This document shows, piece after piece, positions 451-38,234 of a stretch of 64,000 nt of DNA. The notes under the pieces were generated by a model. That model ran no database searches. It was not told the DNA's origin and saw only the letters and a list, made by a program, of their open reading frames with translations. How positions within the stretch are numbered: the first letter of the stretch is position 1; each line of letters opens with the position of its first letter. Made by a program: the position numbers and the translations under genes. This DNA comes from Candidatus Omnitrophota bacterium (GTDB lineage Bacteria > Omnitrophota > Omnitrophia > Omnitrophales > JACQQS01), in contig JACQQS010000052.1 in the NCBI GenBank assembly GCA_016206925.1, forward strand, positions 208 through 64,207. Direction: 5' to 3'.

Positions 451-696
451 ATGTTGCCGCAGAATAATCTGCGCCCGCCGGGCTGGTATTTCAAATTTTG
501 GGGAATGGTGCTGTTATTAATCCTTTTCGGGCCGCTCGCATTTCCTTTTCTCTGGGCTTCCAAGACGATTTCAAGACGTTGGAAGTTAATGCTCACCGTT
601 TTCTTCACCGCCGCAACGGTCTGGGTTGTCGGCGCTTCCATTAATGTTTACAAGGAAGTGCTCCAAGACTTACGCGAGGCCGGTTTGATGCGATGA
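451..696 (+). CDS. small membrane protein (81 aa)
   Basis: ORF with two hydrophobic helices (WGMVLLLILFGPLAFPFLW, LMLTVFFTAATVWVVGA). Its stop overlaps the next start (ATGA at 693-696), suggesting translational coupling. Confidence 0.45.
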   Translation: MLPQNNLRPPGWYFKFWGMVLLLILFGPLAFPFLWASKTISRRWKLMLTVFFTAATVWVVGASINVYKEVLQDLREAGLMR

Positions 697-2399
697 AAGT
701 ACTTGGCGTCGGAACCCCTTATCCGCATGACCCTTCGGCGGCCATCTACGTGGATGGCAAGCTGGTTGCAGCGGCGGAGGAAGAACGTTTTACCCGGGAA
801 AAACATGCCGAGTTTGATCTAACAGTGCATTCCGTTCGTTTCTGTCTAAAACAGGCGGGTCTTAAGCCGGACGATATCGACATCGTCGCTTTTCCCTGGT
901 CCTATGAATGGTACCAGGCGCGGCGCTGGAAATCCTTTCGAAGATTATTTTTCCCCTATATCTCGCGTGCCTTTAAGTCCGTCCTCAAGTCGGAAAAGGT
1001 GCGGAAGAATTCACTCGAGAAACTATACGGAACTTTAAAGGCAGCCGGATTTGATACGGAACGGGTGCGCGTAGAATTTGTTCCGCACCACATTGCGCAC
1101 GCTGCCGCAAGTTATTTCCCCTCGGGGTTTAAGCGCGCGGCTTTTATGTCCTTCGACGGGTCGGGAGAATTTACGGCAGGCATCCTGGGCACGGCGGAGG
1201 GAAAATCACTCCGTGTTGTGAAAGAGTGGATTTGGCCGGACTCGCTCGGCGCGCTCTACACAACATTTACGGAATATTGCGGATTCGAAAGAAACGAAGG
1301 CGAATACAAACTGATGGGCATGGCGCCGTTTGGAAAGACCGGAAAAATCGATTTTTCCGGCGTGGCGACGGTTGAGAAAGGCGATTTCAAAGTTCATTCC
1401 GGTTATTATCACGCGCCGCATCATGAGCGGTATCGTAACGGCATGAATATCAGCCGAAAGCTCGTCCGCCGCTGGGGGCCTCCGAGAGAAGGCGACGATC
1501 TTACGGAGCCTCATACGCATATCGCGTGCGAAACGCAGGAATTGTTTGAGAAAATTGCGATTCAGATGGTTGAATCGCATCTTAGCGATGAACTCAAATT
1601 GCACGGGAGGCTGTGTTTTTCAGGCGGCTGTGCTTTAAATGTCTCACTGAACAGGAAATTAATCAACCATCCGCTTATCAAGGAACTTTGGGTTGTTCCC
1701 GCGGCCGGTGATGCCGGCACGCCGCTTGGCGCCGCGGCTTACGTTGCGGCAGGGAGCGGCGATGAGATAGAACCTATGCGGCATCCCTATCTGGGGCCGG
1801 AATACAGTAATGAAGAGATTGAGTCAGCCATCAAAAAGAAATCGTTTTGTGCAAGAAAGGATACCGATATTTGCAGAACGGCAGCCGGGCTTCTTCAAAG
1901 AGGCGAAATCGTCGGCTGGTTTCAGGGCCGGATGGAATTCGGCCCGCGCGCTTTGGGCAACCGGAGCATTCTCGGCAATCCTACCGTTCGCGGAACGGCC
2001 GATCGCATAAACGCCATTGTAAAATTCCGGGAACAATGGCGGCCTTTTTGCCCCTCGCTTATTCGTGAGCTTGCGCCCGATTTTATTTTAAATAAGCACC
2101 CGTCACCTTTCATGACGTTTAGTTTCGAGGTAAATCCCGTTTGGCGGAGTAAAGTTCCGGAAGTGGTTCACGTTGACGGGACAGCCCGGCCGCAATATGT
2201 GAATCGCGACACCAATCCGCGATTTTATTCCTTGATCGAACATTTCCATCGCTTGAGCGGAGTGCCCATAGTTATCAATACATCTCTCAACCGGCGCGGC
2301 GAGCCCATGGCTTGCTCCCCCGACGATGCGCTTGACATGTTCGAAGGTTGTGGGCTAGGGTATCTTGCTTTAGGTGACTGGTTGGTTAGTAAAAAGTAG
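693..2399 (+). CDS. carbamoyltransferase (NodU/CmcH family)
   Basis: 568-aa ORF. The N-terminus HDPSAAIYVDGKLVAAAEEERFTREKH, FSGGCALN, and C-terminal HVDGTARPQ...INTSLNRRGEPM are typical of the family. Confidence 0.85.
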   Translation: MKVLGVGTPYPHDPSAAIYVDGKLVAAAEEERFTREKHAEFDLTVHSVRFCLKQAGLKPDDIDIVAFPWSYEWYQARRWKSFRRLFFPYISRAFKSVLKSEKVRKNSLEKLYGTLKAAGFDTERVRVEFVPHHIAHAAASYFPSGFKRAAFMSFDGSGEFTAGILGTAEGKSLRVVKEWIWPDSLGALYTTFTEYCGFERNEGEYKLMGMAPFGKTGKIDFSGVATVEKGDFKVHSGYYHAPHHERYRNGMNISRKLVRRWGPPREGDDLTEPHTHIACETQELFEKIAIQMVESHLSDELKLHGRLCFSGGCALNVSLNRKLINHPLIKELWVVPAAGDAGTPLGAAAYVAAGSGDEIEPMRHPYLGPEYSNEEIESAIKKKSFCARKDTDICRTAAGLLQRGEIVGWFQGRMEFGPRALGNRSILGNPTVRGTADRINAIVKFREQWRPFCPSLIRELAPDFILNKHPSPFMTFSFEVNPVWRSKVPEVVHVDGTARPQYVNRDTNPRFYSLIEHFHRLSGVPIVINTSLNRRGEPMACSPDDALDMFEGCGLGYLALGDWLVSKK

Positions 2400-2645
2400 C
2401 CAGTAGCCAGGGGCCAGTAGCCAGGCAAGTTGAGAAGTAATCAACATGCCAAGTGGATTAAAGAAGATATTGCCCCTGATGTGATATTAATGCTCAAGGA
2501 GTGAGAGGATAGCCATCAGCATTCTTGGTATGATGGCGTGATAATTGGGAATTTGACGATTAAGGGTTTTGTTGGTTTTCTTTATTTTGTTTCTTTTTTC
2601 CCGATTATTTCCCCCTTGCCCCTGGCTACTTGCTCGTGGCTACTT
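2395..2645. repeat. hairpin-armed intercistronic cassette A (heptad array AGTAGCC x4 plus complementary array 185 nt downstream)
   Basis: Left arm at 2395-2429: AGTAGCC AGTAGCC AGGGGCC AGTAGCC AGGCAAG. Right arm at 2615-2645: CTTGCCCCTGGCTACTTGCTCGTGGCTACTT. 2416-2425 pairs perfectly with 2621-2630. Confidence 0.7.
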
Positions 2646-2666
2646 CTAACCTAAGGAGGCCTTTAT

Positions 2667-3065
2667 ATGGCTGAAGTTAAGATGAGGAAACAACTCTCTG
2701 TGTTCTTATCCAACCGTCCCGGCGAGCTTAGCCGGCTTTGTGGAGTTCTGCGCGACAATAATGTAAATATGCAGGGCATTTCAGTACATGATGCGATTGA
2801 CCATTGCCTGGTCCGGATCGTGGTCGATAACCCTACCAAGGCAAGTTTGCTTCTGGAACGTGAGGAATGGCACGTGACGGAGCAAAACGTCGTTATGGTC
2901 AGCGTTATGAATGTACCGGGGGCACTCGGTAAGATTTCCCAGAAATTGGCCGAAGCGGACATTAACATTTGCTACGCGTATGCCTCCGCGCTTCCGGGCG
3001 CCGATGAGGCTATGATGATCTTAAACACGGACGCGAACGAACGCGCGGTGGAAGCTCTTCAATAA
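2667..3065 (+). CDS. ACT-domain (amino-acid-binding regulatory fold) protein
   Basis: 132 aa. Two ACT-like halves (LSVFLSNRPGELSRLCGVL..., VMVSVMNVPGALGKISQKLAEADINI). Strong SD AAGGAGG 8 nt upstream. Confidence 0.6.
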   Translation: MAEVKMRKQLSVFLSNRPGELSRLCGVLRDNNVNMQGISVHDAIDHCLVRIVVDNPTKASLLLEREEWHVTEQNVVMVSVMNVPGALGKISQKLAEADINICYAYASALPGADEAMMILNTDANERAVEALQ

Positions 3066-3068: not shown

Positions 3069-4232
3069 ATGCAAGTTGCCATAGTAAAGGAAATCTCGGA
3101 TAACGAAATACGCGTGGCGGCTACACCCGAGACTGTCAAGAAATTTGTTGCCGCCGGTTTTTCGGTAGCCGTTCAAAGCGGTGCGGGGGAAGCATCCGCT
3201 GTTTCGGATTCCGATTACAAAACGGCGGGCGCTTCCGTTGAATCCGACGCGCGCTCGATTCTGGGCCAAAGCGATATTGTTCTTAAGGTTGAAAAGCCGG
3301 TCAAGAACACAGCGGCAGGAGCGCACGAAGCCGACTTAATTAAGGAAGGCGCGCTTTTAATCTGCTTTCTTCAGCCGCTAACGAATCATGAATTGGTCCA
3401 AAAGCTGGCCCGGAGAAACATTACCGCTTTTTCAATGGATGCGGTCCCGCGCATTGCTCGCGCTCAAAAACTCGATGCACTTTCTTCCCAGGCCAACGTT
3501 TCCGGATACAAAGCCGTTCTAGTGGCGGCCAACTTGCTCGGCAAAATGCTGCCCATGATGATTACGGCCGCGGGAACGATTTTGCCGGCGAAAGTTTTCG
3601 TCATCGGCGCGGGCGTGGCCGGTCTTCAAGCCATTGCTACGGCAAAACGCTTAGGCGCGGTTGTCGAGGCATTCGATACGCGTCCGGTCGTGAAAGAGCA
3701 GGTGGAAAGTCTCGGTGCAAAGTTTGTTCAGCTTGAAATCAAGCAGGAAACCGAAGATAAAAGCGGCTACGCCAAAGAGCTTTCTAAAGAGGATCACAGC
3801 CGCGAGCTTGAATTCATTGCAACCCACGCCAAGGTTGCCGACATCGTCATCACAACAGCGCAAATCCCCGGCAAACGGGCTCCTCAACTTATTACGGAAG
3901 AGACCGTGAAGAACATGCGCCGCGGTTCGGTCATTGTTGATTTGGCGGCAGAGGGCGGAGGAAATTGTACCCTGACCGAACCGGGCAAGGCTGTTCTCAA
4001 ACACGGCGTAACGATCGTCGGCACGCGGAATTTTCCAGCTCTGATGCCCGCCCAGTCAAGCCAGCTCTATGCGCGCAATATCGCCGGGCTTTTTTTTGAG
4101 ATCGTGAAGGACGGAAAGATTAATTTGGATTTGACGAACGAAGTTATCAAAGGTTCGTTAATTACGCACGGCGGGAAAATCGTTCACGAAGGAGTGGCGG
4201 GCGTGATAAATCACGCCCGTACGCTTGTGTAG
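3069..4232 (+). CDS. pntAA: NAD(P) transhydrogenase alpha subunit part 1
   Basis: 387 aa with the alanine-dehydrogenase/PNT fold. Rossmann motif VFVIGAGVAGLQAIATAKRLGA. Followed by the pntAB and pntB genes. Confidence 0.9.
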   Translation: MQVAIVKEISDNEIRVAATPETVKKFVAAGFSVAVQSGAGEASAVSDSDYKTAGASVESDARSILGQSDIVLKVEKPVKNTAAGAHEADLIKEGALLICFLQPLTNHELVQKLARRNITAFSMDAVPRIARAQKLDALSSQANVSGYKAVLVAANLLGKMLPMMITAAGTILPAKVFVIGAGVAGLQAIATAKRLGAVVEAFDTRPVVKEQVESLGAKFVQLEIKQETEDKSGYAKELSKEDHSRELEFIATHAKVADIVITTAQIPGKRAPQLITEETVKNMRRGSVIVDLAAEGGGNCTLTEPGKAVLKHGVTIVGTRNFPALMPAQSSQLYARNIAGLFFEIVKDGKINLDLTNEVIKGSLITHGGKIVHEGVAGVINHARTLV

Positions 4233-4252
4233 GGGCGCAATGCATTGCGCCC
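4233..4252. repeat. perfect 20-nt GC-rich palindrome GGGCGCAATGCATTGCGCCC directly after the pntAA stop
   Basis: Read directly: the 10+10 nt are self-complementary. It is preceded by GTAG, as in the related GC hairpins at 7127, 38774 and 42382. Confidence 0.8.
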
Positions 4253-4281
4253 GTTGTGAGTAATAAAGGAGGGAGATTGAT

Positions 4282-4560
4282 ATGGAGGCTATTCTCGTCG
4301 CATTTTTTATATTCGTATTGTCCTGTTTCATCGGGTTTGAGGTTATCTCGAAAATTCCCCCCACGTTGCACACGCCGCTTATGTCAGGTTCCAACGCGAT
4401 TTCTGGAATTACTATTGCTGGGGCGCTTCTCTGCGCGGGGCCGAAAGACATGAACGCTACTGCGATCCTGGGATGGGCCGCCATCATTTTTGCAATGATT
4501 AACGTGGTAGGCGGTTATTGGGTAACCGATCGCATGATGAGGATGTTTAAGAAGAAATGA
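4282..4560 (+). CDS. pntAB: NAD(P) transhydrogenase alpha subunit part 2 (membrane)
   Basis: 92 aa with three TM helices. Motif HTPLMSGSNAISGI. SD GGAGGGA upstream. Confidence 0.85.
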   Translation: MEAILVAFFIFVLSCFIGFEVISKIPPTLHTPLMSGSNAISGITIAGALLCAGPKDMNATAILGWAAIIFAMINVVGGYWVTDRMMRMFKKK

Positions 4561-4566
4561 CATGGA

Positions 4567-4663
4567 CGTCATCCCCGCGTAAGTGGGGATCTATAAATAA
4601 TAAGAAGAATGGATTCCCGCTGGAGCCTGCCCCCGAATGTCTCTATCGGGGGCGGGAATGACG
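4567..4663 (+). repeat. nested-hairpin REP/MITE-like element, copy 1 (97 bp)
   Basis: Termini are CGTCATCCCCG and CGGGAATGACG (11-bp inverted repeat, 1 mismatch). Internal hairpins are ATCCCC..GGGGAT and ATTCCCGC..GCGGGAAT. It is collinear with copy 2 at 58902-58991. Confidence 0.7.
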
Positions 4664-6049
4664 AATATCGACATGAACCTATTGGTTGATTTCTCCTATC
4701 TCATTTCCGCATGTCTTTTCATCGTTGGACTGAAACTGCAAAATCGGGTTAGGACAGCGCGCCGGGGAAACTTTCTTTCCGCCTTTGGAATGCTTCTCGC
4801 CATTGTCGTAACGTTATTGTTGCCCGAAGTCGTGAATTATTCCGTTATTTTTCTAATGTTGGCCATGGGTTCGGCAGTCGGGTTTTTGCTTGCGGTGAAC
4901 GTCCGGATGACGGCCATGCCGCAGATGGTAGCACTTTTAAACGGATTTGGCGGGTTGGCATCGGCGCTTGTGTCGAGCTCCGAATTTTTGCGTCAAGGTA
5001 CCGCTGCCGATACGATTTCTTTGGTTACCACGATGCTTGGCGTATTCGTGGGCGCGATTACGTTTACCGGCAGTGTCTTAGCTTATGCAAAACTGGAAGG
5101 ATGGGTCGAGCAGCAGCCCGTCACATTTCCATTGCAGCAAGTTTTAAACCTGATTTTAGCGTTGGCTTGTTTAGCTTTGGGCGTAATTCTTACCGGTGAT
5201 CGAAATGCCGCATGGGCTTTTTGGATGATCGCCATCATTTCATCCGTATTGGGCGTTTTGCTTGTCCTCCCGATCGGGGGAGCGGATATGCCGGTTGTGA
5301 TTTCGCTTTTGAATTCATATTCCGGAATTGCCGCCGCCATTACGGGATTCGTTCTGATGAATAAAGTTCTTATTGTTGCCGGCGCTTTGGTCGGCGCTTC
5401 CGGAATCATTCTTTGTCAGATCATGTGCCAGGCGATGAACCGGTCGCTCGTCAATGTGATGTTCGGCGGATTTGGAAAAGTTGAAGGAGGCACGGCAAGC
5501 AAAGATGGAGAATACACAAGCGTTAAAAGCTGTACGTCCGACGAAGCGGCGCTCGTTCTCGATGGCGCCCAGAACATCATTATCGTTCCCGGTTACGGTC
5601 TTGCAGCGGGACGGGCGCAGCATTCCATTCGCGAACTACAGAAACTGCTCGAGTCTAAGGGAGCTGCAGTTAAGTATGCCATTCATCCTGTTGCCGGCAG
5701 GATGCCTGGGCATATGAATATTCTCTTGGCCGAAGCGGAAGTCCCGTACGAGCAATTATACGAGATGAACGATATCAATCCCGAATTTGAGCAAGCCGAC
5801 GTCGCGCTTGTAGTCGGCGCAAACGATGTGACCAATCCCGTTGCCCGCACCGAGCGCGGGAGCCCCATTTACGGCATGCCGATTCTGGATGTCGACAAAG
5901 CACGCAGCGTAATTGTGATTAAGCGCAGCCTCAGCCCCGGATTCGCCGGAATCAAGAATCCCCTCTTTGAAAAAGAAAACACGATGATGTTTTTCGCCGA
6001 CGCCAAAGCCGGCATCGACTCCCTCGCCAAAGAGCTAAAAAATCTTTAA
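4659..6049 (+). CDS. pntB: NAD(P) transhydrogenase beta subunit
   Basis: dIII motifs GYGLAAGRAQH, YAIHPVAGRMPGHMN and VVGANDVTNP. The start is uncertain: the track ORF starts at 4637, inside the repeat element. The ATG at 4659 lies in the element's right terminus. The ATG at 4673 (MNLLVDFSYL) aligns best with known PntB N-termini. Confidence 0.88.
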
Positions 6050-7126: not shown

Positions 7127-7154
7127 TTAGGGGGCGCCCGGCAGGCGCCCCTAA
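7127..7154 (+). promoter_or_regulatory. GC-rich hairpin 9 nt upstream of the gltB start codon
   Basis: TTAGGGGGCGCC-CGGCA-GGCGCCCCTAA (11 bp plus a 1-nt bulge). There is no recognisable SD between the hairpin and the ATG at 7163. Confidence 0.5.
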
Positions 7155-7162: not shown

Positions 7163-10100
7163 ATGACAAAAATGTATAAATTTCGGCCGCAGCAAACTGG
7201 TTTGTATGATCCACGCAATGAGCGCGATGCCTGTGGTGTCGGATTCATTGCGAACATGAAGGGTGTTAAATCGCATGACATCGTTCAAAAAGGCATTCGG
7301 ATTTTAGTTAACCTTGCCCATCGCGGTGCGTGCGGCTGTGATCCGCTTACCGGCGACGGCGCCGGGCTTTTGATTCAAATTCCCCATGAATTTTTTGCGA
7401 GGGAAACGGAAAAACTGGGATTTGGCCTGCCTAAACCCGGTCAATATGGCGTGGGCATGGTTTTTATGCCGCGCGATTTGGAAGAGCGAAACCAGTGCAA
7501 ACTTATTTTTGAAACGATTGCGCGCGAGGAAGGTTTGGCCGTTCTTGGCTGGCGCGACGCTCCCCGCGACAACACGCACATCGGCTGGGTTGCCCGCGAA
7601 GCGGAGCCGGTCATCCGGCAAATTTTTCTCGGTGCCGGTCCGGATATCAAAGATACGAACCAGCTCCAGCGGAAGCTTTACGTCGTTCGCAAGTGTGTTG
7701 AAAACGCCGTAAGGAAACAGGGTTTAAGGGAGGAGAAATTTTTTTACGTGCCCAGCCTTTCTGCGCGTACGGTTGTGTACAAAGGCCAGCTCATTGCCTG
7801 GCAGCTTGAGAAATATTTTCTTGATCTGCACGATAATTCAATGGTCAGCGCCTTGGCCATGGTGCATTCGCGTTACAGCACGAACACATTTCCTTCCTGG
7901 GATCTCGCACATCCGTATCGTTTTATCTGCCATAACGGCGAAATCAATACGCTCCGCGGCAATATCAACTGGATGCGTACGCGGCAGGCCTTGATGGCCA
8001 GCGAACTTTTCGGTAAGGACATGAAAAAACTTTTCCCGATCATCAATGAAAAAGGGAGCGACTCAGCCATTTTTGATAATGCTCTGGAACTTCTCGTCAT
8101 GGGCGGCAGGAGTCTAAGACACGCCATTATGATGATGATTCCTGAGGCCTGGACCGGTGATGAATTCATGAGCCGGGAGAAAAAGGATTTTTACGAGTAT
8201 CATTCCTGTTCGATGGAGCCCTGGGATGGGCCGGCATCCATTGCCTTTTCCGACGGGCGGGAAATCGGCGCCGTGCTCGATCGAAACGGATTGAGGCCTT
8301 CGCGCTATACCGTTACGAAAGACGGTTTTGTCATTATGGCATCCGAAACCGGAGTGCTCGATATCGATCCGGCCAATGTGCTGCATAAAGACAGGCTCAC
8401 ACCGGGAAGGATGTTTTTGGTTTCGCTCGAAGAAGGCCGCATTATCGCGGACGAAGAAATTAAGCACCAGCTGGCCGCGCGGAGGCCGTACGGAAAATGG
8501 CTTAAGGAAAACCTTGTCCATTTAGAGAATGTTCCCAACCCGCGTTTTGTGCACGGATTTGACAAGGAGTCGCTGAAGAAACGGCAAGCAGCATTTGGAT
8601 ACACGGTCGAAGATCTTCGAATCATTATTGCACCGATGGCCATCGGTGCCCAGGAGCCCGTCGGTTCGATGGGAAATGATACGCCGCTCGCCTGTTTGTC
8701 CGACAAGGCGCCGCTTCTTTTTAACTACTTTAAACAATTGTTCGCGCAGGTGACCAATCCGCCCATCGATCCGATCCGTGAAGAGCTGGTCATGTCGACG
8801 GAGCTGACCATCGGTCAGGAACAAAATCTTTTGGACGAAACGCCGGAGCATTGCCATCAGCTTAAGCTGAAGCATCCGGTGATCAGTAACGAAGAGCTTG
8901 AGAAGATTCGAAACGTCGCCGAGGGAAAACTTCAATCGGCAACCATTCCTATCCTTTTCAACGTGGACAGCGGCCCGGATGAGTTAGAGAGGGCCATGAA
9001 AAAACTTTGCGAAGCGGCCTCGAAAGCGGTTGAGGAGGGAAACACGATTCTCATACTTTCAGACCGCGGCGTGGATGAGAAACATGCGCCCATTCCGAGC
9101 CTTCTGGCCGTTGCCGGTGTTCATCATCACCTCATTCGAGAAGGTACGCGGTCAAAAGTGGGTATCGTTATTGAAACGGGAGAGGCAAGGGAGATGCATC
9201 ATTTTGCCTTGCTCATCGGTTACGGAGCCGGCGCCGTAAATCCGTATCTTTGTTTTGAAACCATCATCCATCTCGTCCGCCATCCCGAAGTGCCGGGCAT
9301 CATGCCGACGGATTTGGATGAAAAGGATGCGGTCAAAAATTTCATCAAGGCCACACGTAAAGGCCTGCTCAAAATTATTTCTAAAATGGGCATCTCGACA
9401 ATTCAAAGTTACCGCGGCGCCCAGATTTTCGAAGCCGTGGGATTAAATGATGAGGTGATCGGCCGCTATTTTACGCATACCGCTTCCCGGGTTGGAGGTG
9501 TGGGTCTGGATGTCATCGGCAAAGAGGCGCTTATCCGCCACGAGCGGGCTTTCCCGAAACGGGAAACAACGGATAAACTTGAATTGGACGTGGGCGGTCA
9601 ATATCAATGGCGGCAGCGCGGCGAGTACCACATGTGGAATCCTGCTACGATCGCTTTGTTTCAACACGCCGTTCGTTCAGGAAAATATGAGCTCTTCAAG
9701 AAATTTTCTGAAACGGCCAATAGCTATGACAAGAAATTTTGCACGTTGCGTGGCCTTTTGGAATTTAAGTGGGCGGAGAAACCCGTTCCGATCGAAGAAG
9801 TCGAGCCGGTTTCAGAAATTGTAAAGCGTTTCAACACGGGCGCGATGTCTTTCGGATCTATCAGCAAGGAAGCGCATGAAAATCTGGCCATTGCCATGAA
9901 CCGCTTGGGCGGAAAGAGCAATACGGGCGAAGGCGGCGAAGATCCGGCGCGCTACATTCCGGATGCAAACGGAGACCTCCGGCGAAGCCGCATTAAACAG
10001 GTGGCTTCCGGCCGGTTCGGAGTGGATAGTTATTACCTCGTCCATGCGGATGAGCTTCAAATCAAAATGGCCCAGGGCGCCAAGCCCGGTGAAGGCGGGC

Positions 10101-11743
10101 AACTGCCGGGACACAAGGTGAGCCAGGAAATCGGCCGTGTGCGTTACACGACGCCCGGCGTTCAACTGATTTCCCCCGCGCCTCATCATGATATTTATTC
10201 CATTGAGGATTTGGCCCAGCTCATTTTTGATTTGAAAAACGGCAACGACCAGGCCAACATCAATGTGAAACTGGTAGCTGAAGTCGGCGTCGGCACCATT
10301 GCAGCCGGTGTGTCCAAAGGCCACGCGGAACTGGTGCTCATCAGCGGTGATACAGGCGGAACAGGGGCGTCACCGCAGACATCGATAAAACATGCGGGAC
10401 TTCCGTGGGAACTCGGCGTTGCCGAAACGCATCAGACACTTGTTTTAAACGATCTGCGCGGAAGAATAATCGTTCAGACGGATGGACAGATTAAGACCGG
10501 CCGCGATGTTGCCATGGCCGTGCTTCTCGGCGCAGAACAATGGGGTGTGGCCACCGGTTCGCTGATTGCTTCGGGTTGTATCATGATGCGCAAATGCCAT
10601 CTGAATACCTGTCCGGTCGGCGTTGCCACGCAGGATCCGGAGCTCAGAAAAAAGTTTTCGGGCAAACCCGATTACGTGGTTAATTTATTTTTCTTTATCG
10701 CTGAAGAACTTCGCGAAATCATGGCCAGGCTCGGTTTTCGCACCGTGAACGAAATGATCGGGCGCGTGGACAAGCTGGAAGTGAAAAAAGCGATCGATCA
10801 TTGGAAAGCCAAAGGACTTGATTTCAGCAAGATTTTGCATAAGCCCGATGTGCCGCCGCATATTGCCACGCACTGCGTCCAGAAGCAGGACCATGGCTTG
10901 TCGAAGGCGATCGACCACGAATTGGTTAAGGATTGCGCGAAGGCCATCGAGCGGAAGGAAAAGGTTCGTTTTGAACGTCCCATTCGAAACGCTAACCGCG
11001 CCGTGGGCGCCATTCTTTCAAGCCGGATTTCCCGCAAATATGGTTACGAAGGATTGCCGCAGGATACGATTCATATCAAATTCTCCGGCTCGGCGGGGCA
11101 GAGTTTTGGCTGCTGGCTTGCGCCGGGCATCACGCTTGAGCTGGAAGGCGATGCGAACGATTATTTGGGCAAAGGCCTCTCCGGCGGGAAACTCATCGCG
11201 TATCCGCCCAGGAATGCAAGTTATGTCCCCGAAGAAAATATCATCATCGGAAATGTTTGCTTCTATGGCGCCACGCGCGGCGAGGCTTACATACGGGGCA
11301 TGGCCGGCGAGCGGTTTTGTGTGCGTAATAGCGGCGTGCATGCCGTTGTCGAAGCGGTCGGCGATCATGGCTGCGAATACATGACGGGCGGATACGTTGT
11401 CGTGCTCGGGCCCACGGGACGGAATTTTGCGGCGGGCATGAGCGGTGGTATCGCGTACGTTCTTGATGAGAAAGGGAATTTCCCGAAGCTTTGCAATCAG
11501 GCCATGGTTGATCTGGAGAAGCCTGATGAAAAGGATATCGAGCGTATTGCCGGAATGATCGGGAAGCACATCGAATACACGCAAAGCAAGCTGGCTGCTG
11601 AAATTTTAAAACGCTGGGGCGATCTTGCGTCGAAATTTGTGAAAGTTTATCCGAAAGATTACAAGAGAGCGCTTACGGATCGCGCTAAGCAGGACGGTGA
11701 AGTTCAGCTGGCCAGCGCCGCCGTATTATCGAAAAGTGCATAA
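7163..11743 (+). CDS. gltB: glutamate synthase large subunit
   Basis: 1526 aa. Ntn-amidotransferase catalytic Cys context ([10 protein letters not shown]). FMN/Fe-S central domain (GEGGEDP..., [16 protein letters not shown]). GXGXG C-terminal domain. Confidence 0.95.
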
Positions 11744-11757
11744 GTATTCAAATGGAA

Positions 11758-11827
11758 AAATTCCAAATCCTAAGCACCAAATTCTAAACAAAATGCAAAA
11801 TCAGAAAATTCTAAACAATGAAATCAT
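11758..11827. repeat. cassette B left arm: about 10 A-rich heptads (AAATTCC AAATCCT AAGCACC AAATTCT ...)
   Basis: The 7-nt register was read directly. 11765-11773 AAATCCTAA is complementary to 12317-12325. The arm contains the ATG (11793) of the cargo gene. Confidence 0.65.
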
Positions 11828-12206
11828 ACCAGAGAAACTTTCAAGAGAGGTTCGTAAACAGGCCAAATACGACTTGGAAGACAGAACCCTTGCTTTTGCC
11901 GGCAAAGTCAGAGAATTTATAAAAATATTGCCAAGATCGACAGCTAATCTGGAAGACACTAGACAATTGATACGGTCTTCGGGTTCCGTTGGGGCGAACT
12001 ATATCGAGGCAAATGAATCACTCAGTAAAAAGGATTTTGTGCTACGCATTAAGATTTGTAAGAAAGAAGCAAAAGAAAGTCGATATTGGTTACGTCTCTT
12101 GGAAATGGATGGAAGATCAGAGGTAACCCGGTTTCGCGAAGACCTCATCGATGAAGTTACGCAACTAACGCGGATCTTTGCTTCGATTTTGACCAAGTGC
12201 GAGTGA
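11793..12206 (+). CDS. four-helix-bundle protein (23S rRNA intervening-sequence protein / Avd-like family)
   Basis: 137 aa from the internal ATG of track ORF 11697-12206. Motifs DLEDRTLAFAGKVREFIKILP, IRSSGSVGANYIEANESLSKKDFVLRIKICKKEAKESRYWLRLL. It looks AT-richer than its neighbours. Confidence 0.8.
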   Translation: MQNQKILNNEIIPEKLSREVRKQAKYDLEDRTLAFAGKVREFIKILPRSTANLEDTRQLIRSSGSVGANYIEANESLSKKDFVLRIKICKKEAKESRYWLRLLEMDGRSEVTRFREDLIDEVTQLTRIFASILTKCE

Positions 12207-12253
12207 GTTGAGCACGCTTTTATTTTCCGTGTTTAGTACGGATTTTGGTTCGA

Positions 12254-12337
12254 GTTTATTTGCGGTTGTGTATTCTTAAAGTTTATTTCGTTTGTTTGTG
12301 ATTTGGAATTTGGAATTTAGGATTTTGTGAGGGTTAG
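12254..12337. repeat. cassette B right arm: about 12 T/G-rich heptads including TTGGAAT TTGGAAT TTAGGAT
   Basis: The 7-nt register was read directly. It is complementary to the left arm, giving about 35 bp of imperfect duplex if G-U pairs are allowed. It ends 3 nt before the gltD ATG. Confidence 0.65.
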
Positions 12338-12340
12338 GTT

Positions 12341-13792
12341 ATGGGTGACGTGCAAGGGTTCATGAAATATAAGCGCGAGGATATCGAGGACCGCCCCGTC
12401 GAGGAGCGGTTAAAAGACTACCAGGATGTCCATATTCCGCTTCCGGAGGACAAGCTCAAGATCCAAGCCGCGCGCTGCATGGACTGCGGAACGCCCTTCT
12501 GTCACACCGGCTTCTCGGGCTGTCCGATTAATAACATCATTCCTGACTGGAACGATTTGGTTTACCGCAACCGCTGGCAGGAAGCCATCGAAGTGCTCCA
12601 CTCCACCAATAATTTTCCCGAATTTACCGGGCAGGTTTGCCCGGCGCCCTGTGAAGGCGCTTGCGTGCTTGGCATTAACGAACCGCCGGTTACGATTAAA
12701 AATATCGAACATGCCATTATTGAGCATGCTTTCCGCGAAGGCTGGGTAAAACCCGAACCGCCCAAAACGGAGACCGGGAAAAAAGTTGCGGTTATCGGTT
12801 CGGGCCCTGCGGGACTTGCTTGCGCTCAACAGCTCCGGCGCGCAGGGCATCAAGTCACCGTTTACGAGAAGGACGACCGGATCGGCGGGCTTTTAATGTA
12901 CGGCATTCCGGATTTTAAATTGGAGAAAGAAGTCGTCGAACGCCGCGTTGCGCAGATGGCCGAAGAGGGTGTAAAGTTTGTTACTAATGCGCACGTCGGA
13001 GTGAATGCGGATGTTTCCGGGCTCAGGAAAAATTTTGACGCCCTATGCCTTGCCGGCGGAGCCCAGCAGCCCCGCGATCTTCCGATTGAGGGCCGCGATT
13101 TAAAGGGTATCCACTTTGCGATGGAATTTCTGCCCCAGCAGAACCGCCGTGTCGCCGGCGAAAAGGTCGCTCCCGATAGAAGCATTACCGCGAAGGACAA
13201 GCGCGTTATCATTATTGGCGGCGGCGATACGGGCTCGGACTGTATCGGCACGTCGCTCCGCCACGGATGCAAATCGCTGACTTCTTTTGAACTGCTTCCT
13301 AAACCGCCGGATGACCGCGCACCGGAAAATCCCTGGCCGCTTTGGCCGCAGATTTTCCGTGTCTCCTCCTCACATGCGGAAGGCGGCAAGCGCGAGTTTT
13401 CGGTTTTAACCAAGCGCTTTATCGGTGAAAACGGCCATGTCAAGAAACTCCAGGCCTGCCATGCCGAATTTGTCCCTTCGAGTAACGGCACCGGCCGCTC
13501 CGAAATGCGTGAGATTCCGGGTTCCCAATTTGAAATTCCCGCCGATCTGGTACTTCTCGCAATGGGGTTTCTCGGCCCGGTTAAAAAAGGCATGATTGAA
13601 CAGCTTGGCGTTGAGCTCGACAGCCGAGGAAATGTGAAAGCCGATGAAAATAAAATGACCAGCGTTCCCGGCGTATTCACCGCAGGCGACATGACCCGTG
13701 GCCAATCCCTTGTGGTCTGGGCCATCCATGAAGGCCGCGCCGCTGCGCGCGGTATCGACAAATTCCTCATGGGTTCCACCGTCTTACCCTAG
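12341..13792 (+). CDS. gltD: glutamate synthase small subunit (NADPH)
   Basis: 483 aa. Fe-S Cys clusters (CMDCGTPFC, CPAPCEGAC) and two dinucleotide folds (VAVIGSGPAGLACA, VIIIGGGDTGSDC). Confidence 0.95.
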   Translation: MGDVQGFMKYKREDIEDRPVEERLKDYQDVHIPLPEDKLKIQAARCMDCGTPFCHTGFSGCPINNIIPDWNDLVYRNRWQEAIEVLHSTNNFPEFTGQVCPAPCEGACVLGINEPPVTIKNIEHAIIEHAFREGWVKPEPPKTETGKKVAVIGSGPAGLACAQQLRRAGHQVTVYEKDDRIGGLLMYGIPDFKLEKEVVERRVAQMAEEGVKFVTNAHVGVNADVSGLRKNFDALCLAGGAQQPRDLPIEGRDLKGIHFAMEFLPQQNRRVAGEKVAPDRSITAKDKRVIIIGGGDTGSDCIGTSLRHGCKSLTSFELLPKPPDDRAPENPWPLWPQIFRVSSSHAEGGKREFSVLTKRFIGENGHVKKLQACHAEFVPSSNGTGRSEMREIPGSQFEIPADLVLLAMGFLGPVKKGMIEQLGVELDSRGNVKADENKMTSVPGVFTAGDMTRGQSLVVWAIHEGRAAARGIDKFLMGSTVLP

Positions 13793-13988: not shown

Positions 13989-14480
13989 ATGAAACGAATC
14001 TATTCACTAGAACCAATCATTGATTTACGTTCGAAAGTTCTAATACTTGGTTCTATGCCGAGTGGGCAGTCTCTACAGAAATCGGAATATTATGGAAATT
14101 CCAGAAACCAATTCTGGAAAATTATTTGTTCTATCTTTGACGAAGCATTCCCGAGTTGTTATGAAGATAAGGTTAAATTGTTGGCCAAAAATCGCGTAGC
14201 ATTGTGGGATGTATTAAAGGAATGTGACCGTATTAAGTCGAGTGATGCTACGATTGGAAACGGCGCTTTTAACGATATTCCCACATTACTTAATAAGTAT
14301 CCACAAGTTACTCGTATTGTATTAAATGGCAAAAAAGCCAAAGCTTGTTTCGAAAATATCTTTGGAGCGGTTATGAAAATTCCTTATGTTTATGTTCCTT
14401 CAAGCAGCTCAGCCAATGCGAGAATATCCTTACACGAAAAGATTTGCAAATGGAAAAGAGCTATCCGTTGGGTCTCTTAA
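13989..14480 (+). CDS. DNA-deoxyinosine (hypoxanthine) glycosylase, UDG superfamily family-6-like
   Basis: 163 aa. The motif VLILGSMPSGQSLQKSEYYGNSRNQFWKII matches the family signature as remembered. The gene is visibly AT-rich. Confidence 0.6.
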   Translation: MKRIYSLEPIIDLRSKVLILGSMPSGQSLQKSEYYGNSRNQFWKIICSIFDEAFPSCYEDKVKLLAKNRVALWDVLKECDRIKSSDATIGNGAFNDIPTLLNKYPQVTRIVLNGKKAKACFENIFGAVMKIPYVYVPSSSSANARISLHEKICKWKRAIRWVS

Positions 14481-14514
14481 ATGAGACCATTAACTGAGCG
14501 TGGCCCCAAAACCA

Positions 14515-14536
14515 ATTTCTGCCGGCCGGCAGAAAT
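14515..14536. repeat. perfect 22-nt palindrome ATTTCTGCCGGCCGGCAGAAAT downstream of the glycosylase gene (possible hairpin/terminator)
   Basis: Read directly. No U-tract follows, so a terminator role is uncertain. Confidence 0.35.
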
Positions 14537-14613
14537 TGCCTGAAGAAGGCCGTAAAACCTGTAAAAATTTCATGAAAAACGCCCATACCGGCGTTGCAAT
14601 CATAGTATTTTTA

Positions 14614-14629
14614 TACTACACTTGTAGTA
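14614..14629. promoter_or_regulatory. candidate operator: TACTACA-CT-TGTAGTA palindrome upstream of the wHTH-MNT gene
   Basis: Perfect 7-bp arms sit 5 nt upstream of the ATG. A third half-site, GACTACA, overlaps the start codon (14636-14642). The downstream protein has an N-terminal winged-helix domain. Confidence 0.4.
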
Positions 14630-14633
14630 CATT

Positions 14634-15224
14634 ATGACTACAATGCCGTTTTACCCCTTCCACTTGACCAAGTCTCCCCTTAGGAAAAGGCTCTTGGCAT
14701 ACTTTTTCACGAATCCCGAGGCGCGTCTTTACTTAAGAGAAATCGCCGTCCAGCTTGACGTGGACCCCACCAACCTATCCCGTGAATTAAGAAAGCTTGA
14801 GCAAGAAGGTGTGTTTGTTTCGGAGAGAAACGGCCTTCAAAAGTATTTCTCACTCAATAAAAATTATGCGCTCTACGAAGAACTTCGATCAATGGTATTT
14901 AAAACAGTAGGTGTTCAAGGCGCCCTTACACGTCTTTTGCGGGACATTCAAGGAATTCATCGCGCTTTTATTTATGGATCATTTGCGAAAAACAGTGAGC
15001 GGGCGGGATCGGATGTCGACCTTTGTCTTATTATCGATAAGAAATATTTTAGAGAAGACCACCTCCTTGAGAAACTGCATAAGCTTGAACAGAAACTCGG
15101 CCGCGAGATCAACTATTCATTTTTTTCGGTGCAAGAGTGGGAATCAAAAATACGTTCTAAAGATAGTTTTGTTCTGGGACTCATGAAGGGCAAACGTATC
15201 GAGCTTATCCATGAAAAAGATTGA
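14634..15224 (+). CDS. winged-helix plus minimal nucleotidyltransferase (MNT) protein, antitoxin-type partner of HEPN
   Basis: 196 aa. ArsR-like wHTH (LREIAVQLDVDPTNLSRELRKLEQEGV) and NTase motif IYGSFAKNSERAGSDVDLCLI. It overlaps the HEPN ORF by 14 nt. Confidence 0.75.
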   Translation: MTTMPFYPFHLTKSPLRKRLLAYFFTNPEARLYLREIAVQLDVDPTNLSRELRKLEQEGVFVSERNGLQKYFSLNKNYALYEELRSMVFKTVGVQGALTRLLRDIQGIHRAFIYGSFAKNSERAGSDVDLCLIIDKKYFREDHLLEKLHKLEQKLGREINYSFFSVQEWESKIRSKDSFVLGLMKGKRIELIHEKD

Positions 15225-15674
15225 TTTAAGCGACCTTATCCGTGAAGGGCAAATTCAAGAAGAGCCCAGCATCGGTTGGGATCAGGTAGAACAGCTGATC
15301 AGGCGGGCATTTGAAGATCTCAAATCAGCGGATAGAAATATGCCGTTTGACGAACCCGGAGCCATGGATTTCATTTACAAAGCGATGTTTCATGCAGCGA
15401 ACGCTTTGCTCCGCTCCTACGGATTTAGACCCGGCGCTACGCGACAACATCAGGGCGTGATTACCGCCGTCAGCGGATTTTAGGACCGGAGTACAAGGCT
15501 CTAATCCTTAAGTTTGACAAATTGCGCAAGCGACGAAATCAGTTCGAATATCAGGGAATTTTTGAAATGGGCCGGGAAGAATTACAGGATTCGATCGAAC
15601 AAGCCAAGAAGCTTGTCGTTGCCATTCGCTCAGCCCTTGAAAAATCCAATCCCCAGAAGCATTTTGACTGGTAG
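15211..15674 (+). pseudogene. HEPN-domain gene interrupted by a frameshift
   Basis: Frame 1 (15211-15483) ends ...YKAMFHAANALLRSYGFRPGATRQHQGVITAVSGF*. Frame 3 (open from 15429) continues RILGPEYKALILKFDKLRKRRNQFEYQG...HFDW* to 15674. Together they form one HEPN domain. Confidence 0.6.
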
Positions 15675-15733
15675 AAAAAACTAAATGGGTCAATCTCAGA
15701 ACAGGCAATAATTGCAAAGAAAAGGAGATGGCG

Positions 15734-15970
15734 TGTGACAAAGCCCTTAAATGAATTTGGCGGCTGGCTTCGCTTCTTTCAAATCCTGTGTTAATATTTG
15801 GTTTTCTCAGTAATACAACTCGTGCCTGGCTCCGGCATATGAGCTATTGGAGAGAAAGCGTTAACGCGATTAGGCATGCTGTTATCATCGGTGTGTGGAT
15901 TCCCTATTTCATGTGTTCTAAGCGAGTGAAGGCGTATTACGGAGCAAACGCGACCAAGCTTTCCTTGTAG
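15734..15970 (+). pseudogene. possible remnant of a DUF2569-type membrane protein gene (N- and C-terminal fragments only)
   Basis: GTG at 15734 (SD AAAGGAG) gives VTKPLNEFGGWLRFFQILC*. ORF 15788-15970 ends ...VIIGVWIPYFMCSKRVKAYYG. Both resemble the termini of that family, and the middle is missing. Confidence 0.3.
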
Positions 15971-16009
15971 AGTCGTTGAAATGTTTTTAGCAGATGTATC
16001 GAATGACGC

Positions 16010-16240
16010 TTAAAGTTGATTGAGGATATCGAGATATTCCTGGTTAGAAATGCCGAGCGTTCTTAAGTTGCTCTTTATTTCAAAGACAGGAAGATCTTTC
16101 TTCGCACGAACAATCACGGGACGAATGAGATCGTTCCTGTCCCACACCCGATGATCTCCATGCTGCCGAACTGGATGGCAGCCCACGTACTCCAGAAATT
16201 TCTCGAAGGTTTTGTAGTGAATCGGTCGAAGGCCAGCCAC
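16010..16240 (-). CDS. hicA: HicA-family (YcfA-like) toxin
   Basis: 76 aa. FEKFLEYVGCHPVRQHGDHRVWDR fits the HicA dsRBD-like fold motif. It starts 2 nt after the hicB stop. Confidence 0.75.
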   Translation of the reverse strand: MAGLRPIHYKTFEKFLEYVGCHPVRQHGDHRVWDRNDLIRPVIVRAKKDLPVFEIKSNLRTLGISNQEYLDILNQL

Positions 16241-16242
16241 GA

Positions 16243-16536
16243 TTAGGCAGGAGCAGGTATTTCTACAGATTTACTCTGTTGATTAATGATGCGGGGAGGA
16301 CTCCATTCATTTCGAACTTTTTGCCAGCCGTACTCTTGAAGAACCTTTCCCCACGTCTTCTTGCGGCTGACTTCCTCGATAAAAAGTTTTAAAGTGACAG
16401 CAAAGGATTTTTCTGCGTCTTCGAATGAATCGCCATGTGCTACAAGATCAAATGCAGGGGAATAGCAAATGAAGGCATCTCCCTCTTTCATATATATTAG
16501 AGGAATGTTAACTTTGACTTTTGAGTGGTTGCCCAT
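16243..16536 (-). CDS. hicB: HicB-family (UPF0150) antitoxin, N-terminal domain type
   Basis: 97 aa. IPLIYMKEGDAFICYSPAFDLVAHGDSFEDAEKSFAVTLKLFIEE. SD GGAGA upstream. Confidence 0.7.
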   Translation of the reverse strand: MGNHSKVKVNIPLIYMKEGDAFICYSPAFDLVAHGDSFEDAEKSFAVTLKLFIEEVSRKKTWGKVLQEYGWQKVRNEWSPPRIINQQSKSVEIPAPA

Positions 16537-16684
16537 ACTTTATTTCTCCATCGGGAACAAGTATATCACATTTCGAAAAGCCAGATCGCTAATTCTATTA
16601 TTTTAAGTGGTTACGCGACTGGAGTTACCGCCTCATGATTTCGGCGTTGTGTTGATTTTGCCGAGATCGAGTCTTCTTTCAAAG

Positions 16685-18601: not shown

Positions 18602-18784
18602 ACCGCTTGATTAAGCGCTGGTCGGGCGCCGCTTGTTCGAGCGGCGGTCGGCCGCTTAGTCCGGCGGTACCGAACGGTCGGTTCGGCGCTTGGTCAGGCG
18701 GTACCGTGCGATCGGCACGGTAATGCTCTTAAAGTATGCCATAGGGTGTTAATACGTCCAATGGGGGTGGGTGAGTTGTCATTA

Positions 18785-26480: not shown

Positions 26481-26586
26481 AGGCCGCATAGTATATCGGC
26501 AGGCCGCGCGGGTTGGCAAGGCAAGCTTTCTCGACGAACTTTCTAAACTGTTTGGCCGTCACGCGTTGATGATATAATGCATAAAA

Positions 26587-26615
26587 AGGTAACGGGAAAC
26601 AGGTAACGGGAAAAC
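26587..26615 (+). repeat. tandem direct repeat AGGTAACGGGAAAC x2 in the msrB leader
   Basis: 26587-26600 and 26601-26615 (the second copy has one extra A). It ends 4 nt before the GTG start. An extended -10-like TGATATAAT lies about 20 nt upstream. Confidence 0.6.
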
Positions 26616-26619: not shown

Positions 26620-27012
26620 GTGAAGAAAATTATAAAGTCGGAAGAGGAATGGAAGAAAGTTCTCACACCAGAGCAGTTTCAGGTAGCGCGAGAAAAAGGT
26701 ACAGAGCCCGCATTTTCCGGAAAATATAACGCCTGCAAAGACAAAGGCATGTACCGCTGTGTTTGCTGCGGCGCCGATCTTTTTAGTTCCGAAACCAAAT
26801 TTGATTCCGGAACCGGCTGGCCGAGTTTTTTTAAACCGGCCAAAAAGGAAAACGTGCGGGCCGAAGATGATTTCAGTTACAACATGCGCCGCACGGAGGT
26901 TCTCTGTAACGTTTGCGGCGCCCATCTCGGCCATCTCTTTAATGACGGGCCGGAGCCTACCGGTCTTCGCTATTGCGTTAACTCCGCCACCCTCAAGTTA
27001 ACAAAGACTTAA
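26620..27012 (+). CDS. msrB: peptide-methionine (R)-S-oxide reductase
   Basis: 130 aa with a GTG start. Zn-Cys pairs CVCCGADLF and [12 protein letters not shown], plus the GTGWPSF and RYCVNS motifs. Confidence 0.92.
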
Positions 27013-34133: not shown

Positions 34134-34142
34134 ATTTCGACA

Positions 34143-34340
34143 TTACTTGACGGTCACAGGCTTACATGCATACTTGACATGCCCGATCTGAGAGATATTT
34201 CTCTTGCACCCCGGCTGCGGGTCCTTGGGTAACCCAACCGATCGCCGAGCTATCAGGGCCAATGCTTCTCCGCCAAGCAGATGAACGCTTACTGCGAGTA
34301 GCAATATCAAGATAAAATGTTTGTTTCGGAGCAAATTCAT
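34143..34340 (-). CDS. small secreted/anchored protein (65 aa)
   Basis: Signal-like N-terminus MNLLRNKHFILILLLAVSVHLLG. Strong SD GGAGGTG 8 nt upstream on the minus strand. Confidence 0.35.
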   Translation of the reverse strand: MNLLRNKHFILILLLAVSVHLLGGEALALIARRSVGLPKDPQPGCKRNISQIGHVKYACKPVTVK

Positions 34341-34587
34341 AGTTTTACACCTCCAGTTTATTTATCCAGTTTATTTAACCAAAGTTTTTTAAAAGTCCTT
34401 CAGAACGTGGGCAAAAAAAAACGCTCGCGCGCTAAAACTTCTGGTTTTTCAGATGCAAAAGTATAACATCCCGGCATTTAAGATTCAAACTCTCTTGGCT
34501 GATATCGCCGTAAGATAAGGTTTAGAAAAGACTTATCGCTGTTGAGTGGCGAAACTCTTCCCGTTGTATCGGCCCGGGTTATTTCTG

Positions 34588-38231: not shown

Positions 38232-38234
38232 CAC

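Follow-up and report, generated by a model that had tools for sequence, protein, structure and literature searches.

REP/BIME, ERIC/IRU and Neisseria Correia elements are imperfect palindromes of transcribed intergenic regions, with a conserved consensus and tens to hundreds of copies per genome; their hairpins affect mRNA processing or stability, and those of the Correia elements are RNase III substrates. Where 23S rRNA intervening sequences (IVSs) and the very abundant PF05635 proteins come from, how they move and what they do are questions that date from the early 1990s. The IVS of Coxiella burnetii is a selfish element of 428-444 nt in helix 45 of 23S rRNA, with a 28-bp terminal stem and an S23p (PF05635) open reading frame (ORF); its 5′ region contains AGAAGA, three tandem GACAGAT heptamers and GACAGAA, with a heptamer number that varies by strain, and RNase III cuts the stem at the start of the first repeat, so that the IVS leaves the primary transcript and the ends are not religated (PMC4990558). 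IVSs occur with or without an ORF and are sporadic among strains, and an old hypothesis regards them as transposon remnants (PMC4990558). Intergenic heptanucleotide repeats, among them cyanobacterial STRR, Beggiatoaceae TAACTGA and the GGGACCG-type repeats of Geobacter, often lie directly upstream of starts, and a post-transcriptional role has been suggested for them (PMC4679880; PMC2700814). Here we describe a heptad-armed hairpin, cassette A, in a 64-kb stretch of a Candidatus Omnitrophota bacterium (contig JACQQS010000052.1, positions 208 to 64,207, forward strand; assembly GCA_016206925.1), hereafter the window, which also holds cassettes B and C and the related array D. Cassette A is a lineage-specific insertion of ~255 nt relative to close relatives. 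By analogy, we regard it as probably an ORF-less selfish hairpin insertion of the 23S rRNA IVS kind, placed in an operon spacer between the stop codon of a carbamoyltransferase gene and the Shine-Dalgarno (SD) sequence of ACT-pntAB.

Judged by this analogy, the window cassettes have IVS anatomy in every respect but location. A 23S rRNA IVS is a sporadic, horizontally acquired insert of 100-750 nt that forms part of the host transcript, and its complementary ends form a stem of ~28 bp or more (28 bp corresponds to four heptads); A likewise has paired ends, with 37 base pairs. Tandem heptamers occupy the 5′ stem region of the Coxiella-type IVS as AGTAGCC does in A. Both are sporadic in close relatives, A being absent from two orthologous junctions and replaced by another cassette at a third. 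Cargo is optional in both, with an S23p/PF05635 ORF in cassette B and ORF-less IVSs also in existence, and the PF05635 gene of B ties the cassette class to rRNA intervening sequences. Unlike an IVS in helix 9, 25 or 45, A lies in an mRNA intercistronic spacer, where excision would separate cistrons rather than fragment an rRNA; it has no ORF, and its AGTAGCC heptad is unique so far.

Anatomy and folding of cassette A

The carbamoyltransferase stop codon, TAG at 2397-2399, falls within heptad unit 1 of A, as the initial annotation of this DNA had proposed from the letters and as the ORF coordinates confirm. Tandem Repeats Finder (TRF) describes the left arm as AGTAGCC with period 7 and 4.3 copies (2395-2424), and the right arm as a period-14 array of CTTGCCCCTGGCTA (2615-2645). 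The pairings that had been read between the arms (2416-2425 with 2621-2630, 2426-2429 with 2615-2618 and 2403-2409 with 2637-2643) are correct by direct reading. An inverted-repeat finder returned arms of 24 nt at 2402-2425 and 2621-2644, which are 88% complementary, and wider arms of 37 nt at 2389-2425 and 2614-2650, which are 73% complementary. Duplex folding with ViennaRNA gave 37 pairs and −50.9 kcal/mol, with small bulges, and the outer right arm was found to pair with the last codons of the carbamoyltransferase gene (GGTTAG...AAGTAG with CTACTT.CTAACC). Folding of region 2380-2670 gave −96.7 kcal/mol, compared with −78.5 ± 4.9 kcal/mol for 200 dinucleotide shuffles, which served as fold controls (z = −3.69; 0 of the 200 were as good). 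Hence the stem is real and non-random. The SD sequence of the ACT gene is mostly unpaired in the minimum-free-energy (MFE) structure. The right arm had been described as ending 20 nt before both the SD sequence and the start codon; this is close for the ATG at 2667, which is 21 nt away, but the SD sequence is only ~7 nt away. Downstream of the ACT gene lie pntAA, pntAB and pntB (NCBIfam PntA).

Paired arrays of this type are scarce in other DNA. We searched for an array of period 7, 14 or 21 with a complementary partner within 1 kb (score of at least 28) and obtained three, A, B and C, in the 64-kb window, as against one in ~1.0 Mb of control DNA from 80 unrelated bacterial genome loci; the sole control array is an AT-rich Pelagibacter locus. 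The control loci came from contig matches to the carbamoyltransferase, of which the best was 55% identical and not syntenic, so that they offer no orthologous junction. Arrays of AGTAGCC were found nowhere else in the window, nor among the 174 loci fetched for comparison (L-numbered below). The census of cassette copies in this genome covers the 64 kb of the window.

The interior of A gave no sign of cargo. All ORFs in the core are of 38 aa or fewer and none has an SD sequence in the ORF list, and a scan of A for promoter and terminator consensus sequences found none of either. With no promoter, terminator or credible gene, A is presumably read through within the operon transcript. An Rfam search of A at gathering thresholds had no matches, and a plant miRNA hairpin that appeared by E-value (E = 0.19) was judged spurious. 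Searches of A against plasmids and phages by blastn gave no match, and Rfam detected no rRNA in the window.

Orthologous junctions in relatives

The ACT protein has few relatives, and the contigs of these supply the orthologous junction. In L087, whose ACT protein is 89% identical, the same junction reads ...AGTAAAAAGTAA AGGGGGGAAT ATGGCTGAAGTTAAA (that is, ...AAAAAGTAA-AGGGGGGAAT-ATG) and the spacer is 10 nt. In L089 (ACT 70% identical) the carbamoyltransferase and ACT genes overlap and there is no cassette. In L088 (ACT 67% identical) the junction holds a spacer of 410 nt with a different heptad-armed cassette, which runs from eight GACAGAN heptads over the stop codon through a 76-aa ORF with two transmembrane (TM) segments to a T-rich complementary arm (CTGTTTCTTTTTTCTGTTCTCTGACTTCTGTCTTCTG), the SD sequence and the ATG; the ORF is plausible and is preceded by GGAAGG, an SD-like sequence. 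In a global alignment of the window with L087, the coding flanks are conserved and separated by one clean gap of ~255 nt. At the borders of the filled site, compared with the empty site of this other species, TAG stands on the left and TAA on the right, a likeness of 2-3 nt that is not significant. Because the orthologous junctions of the nearest relatives lack the cassette, A is a recent insertion or expansion and not a conserved regulatory structure.

The layout had initially been taken as the signature of a selected stem, and a processing or attenuation signal specific to the ACT-pnt genes would be one form of this. The significant fold, the precise position from stop codon to SD sequence and the largely unpaired SD sequence would fit such a cis-regulatory element. 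The junction is nevertheless empty in the relatives with 89% and 70% identical ACT proteins, no Rfam family is matched, and similar elements occur at the unrelated gltB-gltD, pilD-aroC and leuC-leuD junctions. A selected cis-regulatory stem is thus largely refuted, and we consider it very unlikely. The selection claim also fares badly on the folding of the antisense strand and the composition of the pairs, which are taken up below.

The same pattern of presence and absence holds elsewhere in the window. Cassette C consists of a purine-rich left arm (43214-43272), a T-rich block running into a pyrimidine-rich right arm (43377-43447) and the SD sequence GGAGG (43463-43467). Its inverted repeat of 59 nt is 71% complementary, its fold exceeds shuffles (z = −2.72), and it is base-for-base identical in an independent Logan assembly; C is therefore not an assembly artefact. 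Array D had been listed as a further copy of the layout, and in this instance the description does not hold: D consists of direct heptads that form a local hairpin only (z = −2.98), and an inverted-repeat search found no distant complementary arm for it. The recurrence of the layout stands for B and C and extends to many other genomes, and the complementarity of arms within a copy stands for A, B and C.

In the syntenic locus L170 (21 kb, aroC 83% identical) the ilvB-ilvN spacer is 15 nt and the pilD-aroC spacer 23 nt, and no heptad array was found across its 21 kb. The pilD-aroC spacer is 16 nt in L172 and L173 (75%). By contrast with the counterparts in L170 and L172, which measure 16-23 nt, L174, from the same sample as L088, has hairpin cassettes of 190-300 nt at three consecutive junctions of the aro operon, the one at pilD-aroC having 11 copies of ACAGAAG. 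Such presence and absence across relatives is therefore incompatible with a conserved regulatory leader. From these comparisons of sequence, cassettes come and go on a timescale of genus-level divergence and accumulate in some lineages.

Table 1. Positions of the cassettes, their parts and the adjoining genes, with the analyses on which each assignment rests
Feature	Position	Strand	Evidence
Carbamoyltransferase (NodU/CmcH type), upstream cistron	693-2399	+	Pfam Carbam_trans_N (E 1e-51), Carbam_trans_C (E 1e-65); ORF list
Cassette A, left arm: AGTAGCC AGTAGCC AGGGGCC AGTAGCC AGGCAAG, period 7 (also 14)	2394-2429	+	TRF, inverted repeats, duplex fold
Cassette A, core, no convincing gene	2430-2584	+	ORF list, promoter/terminator scan, Rfam, four-helix-bundle profile, blastn
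Cassette A, T-rich block running into start of right arm; sole segment common to cassette C (43377-43412)	2585-2621	+	Local alignment
Cassette A, right arm: CTTGCCCCTGGCTA CTTGCTCGTGGCTA CTT plus CTAACC	2615-2653	+	TRF (period 14), MFE structure, duplex fold
SD AAGGAGG (2653-2659) and ACT-domain protein gene (ATG 2667), downstream cistron	2653-3065	+	Pfam ACT, ACT_8
Cassette B, between gltB (7163-11743) and gltD (12341-13792)	11744-12340	+	Pfam, NCBIfam, PDB match, arms
Four-helix-bundle gene of cassette B, 137 aa	11793-12206	+	PF05635/TIGR02436
Array D, AGCTATC-type heptads, 5.6 copies, between ilvB and ilvN	38176-38234	+	TRF, inverted repeats, fold
Cassette C, between prepilin peptidase gene (pilD) and aroC	43213-43473	+	Inverted repeat, fold, synteny
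L174, cassette at aroE-pilD	3360-3548		
L174, cassette at pilD-aroC	4353-4656		
L174, cassette at aroC-aroK	5779-6034		

Sequence relations and the four-helix-bundle cassettes

Local alignments revealed no conserved cargo across the cassettes, although short similarities link several of them. The T-rich block had been called homologous in A and C; the similarity is real but short, aligning 2586-2621 with 43377-43412 over 36 nt (score 28 versus 17.6 ± 2.5 for dinucleotide-shuffled sequences, z = 4.2). The motif CCCNATTATTTCC occurs in the window only in A and C, yet 11 of 100 shuffles gave at least two matches. L088 and L174_2, two loci of one genome, have 60 nt of the right arm in common (z = 16), and the left arm of C resembles the purine tract of L174_1 (z = 6.3). 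The ORF-less cassettes are purine-rich in the 5′ half and pyrimidine-rich in the 3′ half. The left arms of L088 and L174_2 (...ACAGAAGACAGATGACAGAG...) are built of GACAGAT/GACAGAA, the exact unit of the Coxiella IVS. Hence the arms are not all unrelated between copies, as had been claimed: those of A and C share the 36 nt that run into the right arm, those of L088 and L174_2 are alike, and the arms of B belong to a widely conserved family.

The shared T-rich segment could in principle encode a small hydrophobic peptide (2538-2654, 38 aa, ...FFPIIS...), with the arms regulating its gene in the manner of type I toxin mRNAs. A and C have TTy TTy CCn ATT ATT TCC in common, with all three differences at third codon positions of one frame, and L088 has its plausible two-TM ORF behind an SD-like sequence. 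Against this, the frame in A begins with GTG and has no SD sequence, the same frame in C runs without a stop into aroC, T-rich DNA invariably yields peptides rich in F, L and S, and the cargo is not conserved across cassettes. A peptide gene is therefore barely credible.

An origin in situ, with nothing inserted, would have the arrays grow by replication slippage and the second arm arise by intrastrand template switching (quasi-palindrome correction). Heptad unit 1 of A (AGTAGCC) begins with the bases AAGTA that are already present at the empty site of L087, and the stem reaches into the upstream coding sequence; together these leave room for in-situ growth of the array by slippage. The difference in heptamer number between Coxiella strains and array D, which is a direct heptad array lacking a foreign core, would also fit. 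Nonetheless, the 155-nt core and T-rich block of A do not stem from neighbouring bases, the T-rich block recurs in cassette C at a distance of 41 kb, the 60 nt of right arm shared by L088 and L174_2 lie at different loci, and the arms of B are homologous to cassette arms in other phyla. Purely local growth of A is thus improbable.

Cassette B had been taken for a further copy of the layout. It is not ORF-less, for it carries a gene for a protein that matches Pfam PF05635 (23S_rRNA_IVP) with 46.2 bits (cut-off 33.8), NCBIfam TIGR02436 with 67.2 bits (cut-off 24) and PDB 2RLD with E = 6e-13, and that is 100% identical to the NCBI entry 'four helix bundle protein [Candidatus Omnitrophica bacterium]'. 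The left arm of B (~11757-11817) consists of the A-rich heptads AAATTCC AAATCCT AAGCACC AAATTCT AAACAAA, and the ATG at 11793 lies inside it. The gene is followed by a 3′ untranslated region (UTR) and then by a complementary T-rich heptad arm (TTTGTTTGTGATTTGGAATTTGGAATTTAGGATTTT; ~12280-12336) that stops 13 nt before the gltD ATG. Profiles built with nhmmer from 80 foreign cassettes matched the left arm of B with E = 2.5e-7. A profile of 120 four-helix-bundle (4HB) sequences, run in all six frames, matched B alone and found no 4HB remnant in A or C. Thus, B is a genuine member of the PF05635/TIGR02436 4HB cassettes, and A shares their layout of stop codon, arm, core, arm and SD sequence; A and C differ from them in retaining no 4HB coding sequence and in having arms that lack homology to the conserved AAATCCn and nGGATTT types.

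The 4HB protein family has more than 8000 matches at 60-70% identity across phyla. We assembled 80 4HB loci from a metagenome scan and 3 contexts by exact protein look-up. The looked-up genes stand as nrnA-4HB-truB, as response-regulator gene-4HB-downstream genes and as leuC-4HB-leuD, and all three fill the spacer of co-directional genes and have complementary heptad arms. The 80 metagenomic loci follow one plan. On the 5′ side, a stop codon is followed by 0-12 nt, by AAATCCT/AATATCT or AAATCCG/AAGCACG heptads, by AAACAAA and by the ATG and ORF; on the 3′ side, a conserved 3′ UTR (TGATGTTTTGAACATTTG...ATTGTTT) precedes heptads of the TTAGGATTT or TTCGGATTT type, 5-30 nt and the downstream ATG. 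The conserved arms are thus AAATCCn...AAACAAA on the left and TTTGTTT...nGGATTT on the right. Median spacers are 44 nt upstream and 88 nt downstream of the 4HB gene, and among the 53 loci evaluable for neighbour strand the upstream neighbour is on the same strand in 44 and the downstream neighbour in 48. Co-directional housekeeping genes flank 4HB genes in many phyla.

Pairing of the 4HB arms was evaluable in 54 loci. Counted outward from AAACAA/TTGTTT, at least 18 of 28 arm positions are complementary in 43 of these. Within each heptad, four of the seven positions pair in 88-100% of elements, and the remaining three are variable and often mismatched; heptad position 1 covaries, being G-C in ~28 elements and T-A in ~11. 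Because A-rich and T-rich heptads cross-pair, duplexes of own arms in 68 4HB cassettes were just slightly better (−69 kcal/mol) than those of foreign arms (−61 kcal/mol), and the comparison was uninformative. Contigs with a 4HB gene are very rich in heptad arrays: TRF listed 218 rows across 192 kb, and 54 of these arrays lie beyond the 4HB cassette. They include ORF-less heptad hairpins directly upstream of start codons (L097, 877-1039; L113, 3195-3270), and L127 272-429 is a 4HB-type cassette with the ORF deleted. In Flavobacterium columnare 94-081, a 4HB gene lies between gmk and nadD (175781-177372) with spacers of 35 and 33 nt and is listed as a 'phage element' (PMC5524665, Table 5). This is the same arrangement, wedged in an operon, in a cultured isolate, and F. 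columnare offers a tractable organism for work on 4HB cassettes.

Several further observations concern the 4HB cassettes. In many 4HB proteins the N-terminal extension is simply the heptad arm read in translation, as in MQNQKILNNEIIPEKL... (window 11793-11866; P0096, P0012), so that annotated 4HB starts and lengths (117-153 aa) vary with heptad number. In L122, a 4HB cassette stops directly before an apparent tRNA gene, read by eye, in place of a protein gene, and its upstream flank resembles the right arm of another cassette; L132 (1207-2607) has two 4HB genes ~1 kb apart. Tandem cassettes are therefore possible, and mRNA is not their sole setting. The 3′ UTR of the 4HB cassette in L083 holds a nested palindromic insert (1870-2000; ...TCATTCCGGCGAAAGCCGGAATCC...GGATGCCGGATCAAGTCCGGCATGAC...), and the cassettes are thus themselves insertion targets.

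Origin and possible processing of cassette A

Several findings weigh against the reading of A as an RNA-level insert of the IVS kind. The arms of A pair by Watson-Crick complementarity with no excess of G-U pairs, and folding of the antisense strand is no weaker than that of the sense strand (z = −4.6 versus −3.7). RNA-level selection is for these reasons not separable from a DNA-level inverted repeat, and a function at the RNA level is no more than inferred. As a whole, cassette B folds no better than shuffled sequence (z = −0.74), and pairing in many 4HB arms reaches just ~4/7 positions per heptad. The link from A to IVSs is one of architecture together with a chain of short similarities from A through C to L174, and the nhmmer cassette profiles that matched B found nothing in A, C or L088. 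A also sits between carbamoyltransferase and ACT-domain genes and hence outside 23S rRNA helix 9, 25 or 45. No clear target-site duplication was seen at A in the alignment of filled and empty sites, and a signature search found no RNase III gene in the 64-kb window, the rest of the genome being outside its scope.

Strand-symmetric folding by Watson-Crick pairs is also what would be expected of a miniature inverted-repeat transposable element (MITE) or transposon scar, that is, of a purely DNA-level element whose terminal inverted repeats serve a transposase and whose RNA stem is incidental. A resembles a MITE in its terminal inverted repeats, its small, gene-free body and its lack of a transposase; presence/absence polymorphism among relatives, a multicopy family in one genome (L088, L174_2), a possible TA(R) at both borders (AAGTAG... 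and ...CCTAAGG) and the old transposon-remnant hypothesis for IVSs (PMC4990558) point the same way. However, the arms of A, C and D differ within one genome, so that one transposase could not recognise them all, and they are tandem heptads with no defined terminal sequence. Moreover, every case lies between the stop codon and SD sequence of co-directional genes, a placement that points to a constraint at the transcript level, and no transposase was seen in the loci examined. We therefore consider a MITE an unlikely, albeit credible, source of A. An integron attC site or gene cassette was also entertained and dropped, since here tandem-heptad arms enclose the cargo, in place of a compact attC at its side; integrases were not searched for.

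Among other known hairpins and repeats, REP/BIME, ERIC/IRU and Correia elements share with the cassettes the imperfect palindromic form and the position in co-transcribed operon spacers, but the cassette arms differ from copy to copy and are made of tandem heptads. The STRR/TAACTGA-type repeats are likewise tandem 7-nt intergenic units, and array D resembles them, as does a repeat at 26583-26614; they are single direct arrays of one genome-wide unit, whereas A comprises two complementary arrays around a core.

If A is an insert of the IVS kind, the following course may be envisaged. The operon would be transcribed through A, and the arms would zip into a duplex that exceeds two helical turns. 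RNase III might then cut this stem, as it does IVS stems, removing the core and leaving carbamoyltransferase and ACT-pntAB on separate mRNAs. As an alternative, or in an uncut fraction, the stem could loop A out and bring the stop codon within ~20 nt of the SD sequence and AUG, which would keep the tight coupling seen in relatives with a 10-nt spacer or overlapping genes. A terminating ribosome covers roughly the next 12-15 nt, and one that terminates at 2397-2399 would briefly melt the outer stem half beside the SD sequence. It may be that only inserts with pairing ends are tolerated at such junctions, which would explain why arms of any sequence are complementary within a copy. Slippage probably alters the number of heptads, and the effect on the host may be neutral or mildly regulatory. 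Taken by itself, A looks like an ordinary selfish insert and gave no evidence of a function for the host.

The interest lies in the cassette class rather than in A itself. A broader proposal, which we advance tentatively and regard as doubtful, is that IVS-type elements form a large unrecognised class of mobile operon-spacer elements that colonise stop-to-SD gaps in many uncultivated phyla, with arms that may be excised or looped out at the RNA level. The PF05635 Avd-like pentamer would then be the autonomous cargo, possibly one that binds heptads, ORF-less elements of the A type would be non-autonomous or decayed, and the 23S rRNA IVSs would be landings in rRNA operons. The sporadic architecture of a heptad stem with an optional 4HB ORF at enzyme-subunit junctions such as gltB-gltD, leuC-leuD and ilvB-ilvN would in that case reframe IVSs as general transcript-embedded selfish elements. 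23S rRNA IVSs, PF05635 proteins, intercistronic palindromes and intergenic heptamer repeats are already known. In literature searches with incomplete coverage of journals, we found no account of 4HB/IVS-type cassettes in mRNA operon spacers, although an earlier one is possible; their routine occurrence there across phyla, with heptad arms and with ORF-less companions of idiosyncratic heptads like A, is apparently undescribed. The natural pairs of filled and empty sites provide material for work on the mode of insertion, on RNase III excision from mRNA and on the tolerance of operons for inserts of 250-600 nt. For annotation, the class accounts for many of the puzzling long spacers and small 'hypothetical' ORFs that uncultivated bacterial genomes contain.

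Other repeats in the window

The window also contains hairpins and repeats of other kinds. GC-rich hairpins lie between ilvN and ilvC (38772-38805, CCGGGGCGCCGCGCGGTCGGCGCAGTGCCCCG; the syntenic L170 has a 10-nt spacer without it) and just upstream of gltB (7128-7150, GGGGCGCCCGGCAGGCGCCCC), and a perfect palindrome, GGGCGCAATGCATTGCGCCC, follows pntAA at 4233-4255. From these short GC-rich spacer hairpins, the genome appears to have a second type of intercistronic hairpin, one that is REP-like. At 26583-26614, a 14-nt direct repeat (AAAAAGGTAACGGG, 2.3 copies) stands directly upstream of a GTG-start ORF (26620-27012) read as msrB-like; no complementary partner accompanies it, and it resembles the heptamers that precede start codons in Beggiatoaceae. 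Imperfect 26-nt tandem units (CCGCTTGATCAAGCGCCGGTCGGCCG) and GGCGGTACCG...CGGTCGG motifs occupy 18603-18740, in a 260-nt gap after a minus-strand gene that ends at 18601. The 454-nt gap 34134-34587 between convergent or divergent genes holds, at 34352-34381, a tandem repeat of a 13-nt unit (TCCAGTTTATTTA, 2.3 copies). Finally, region 14000-16700 has a low GC content (0.40-0.45 versus ~0.51), short ORFs on both strands and long gaps, and may be a foreign island or a toxin-antitoxin-like region.

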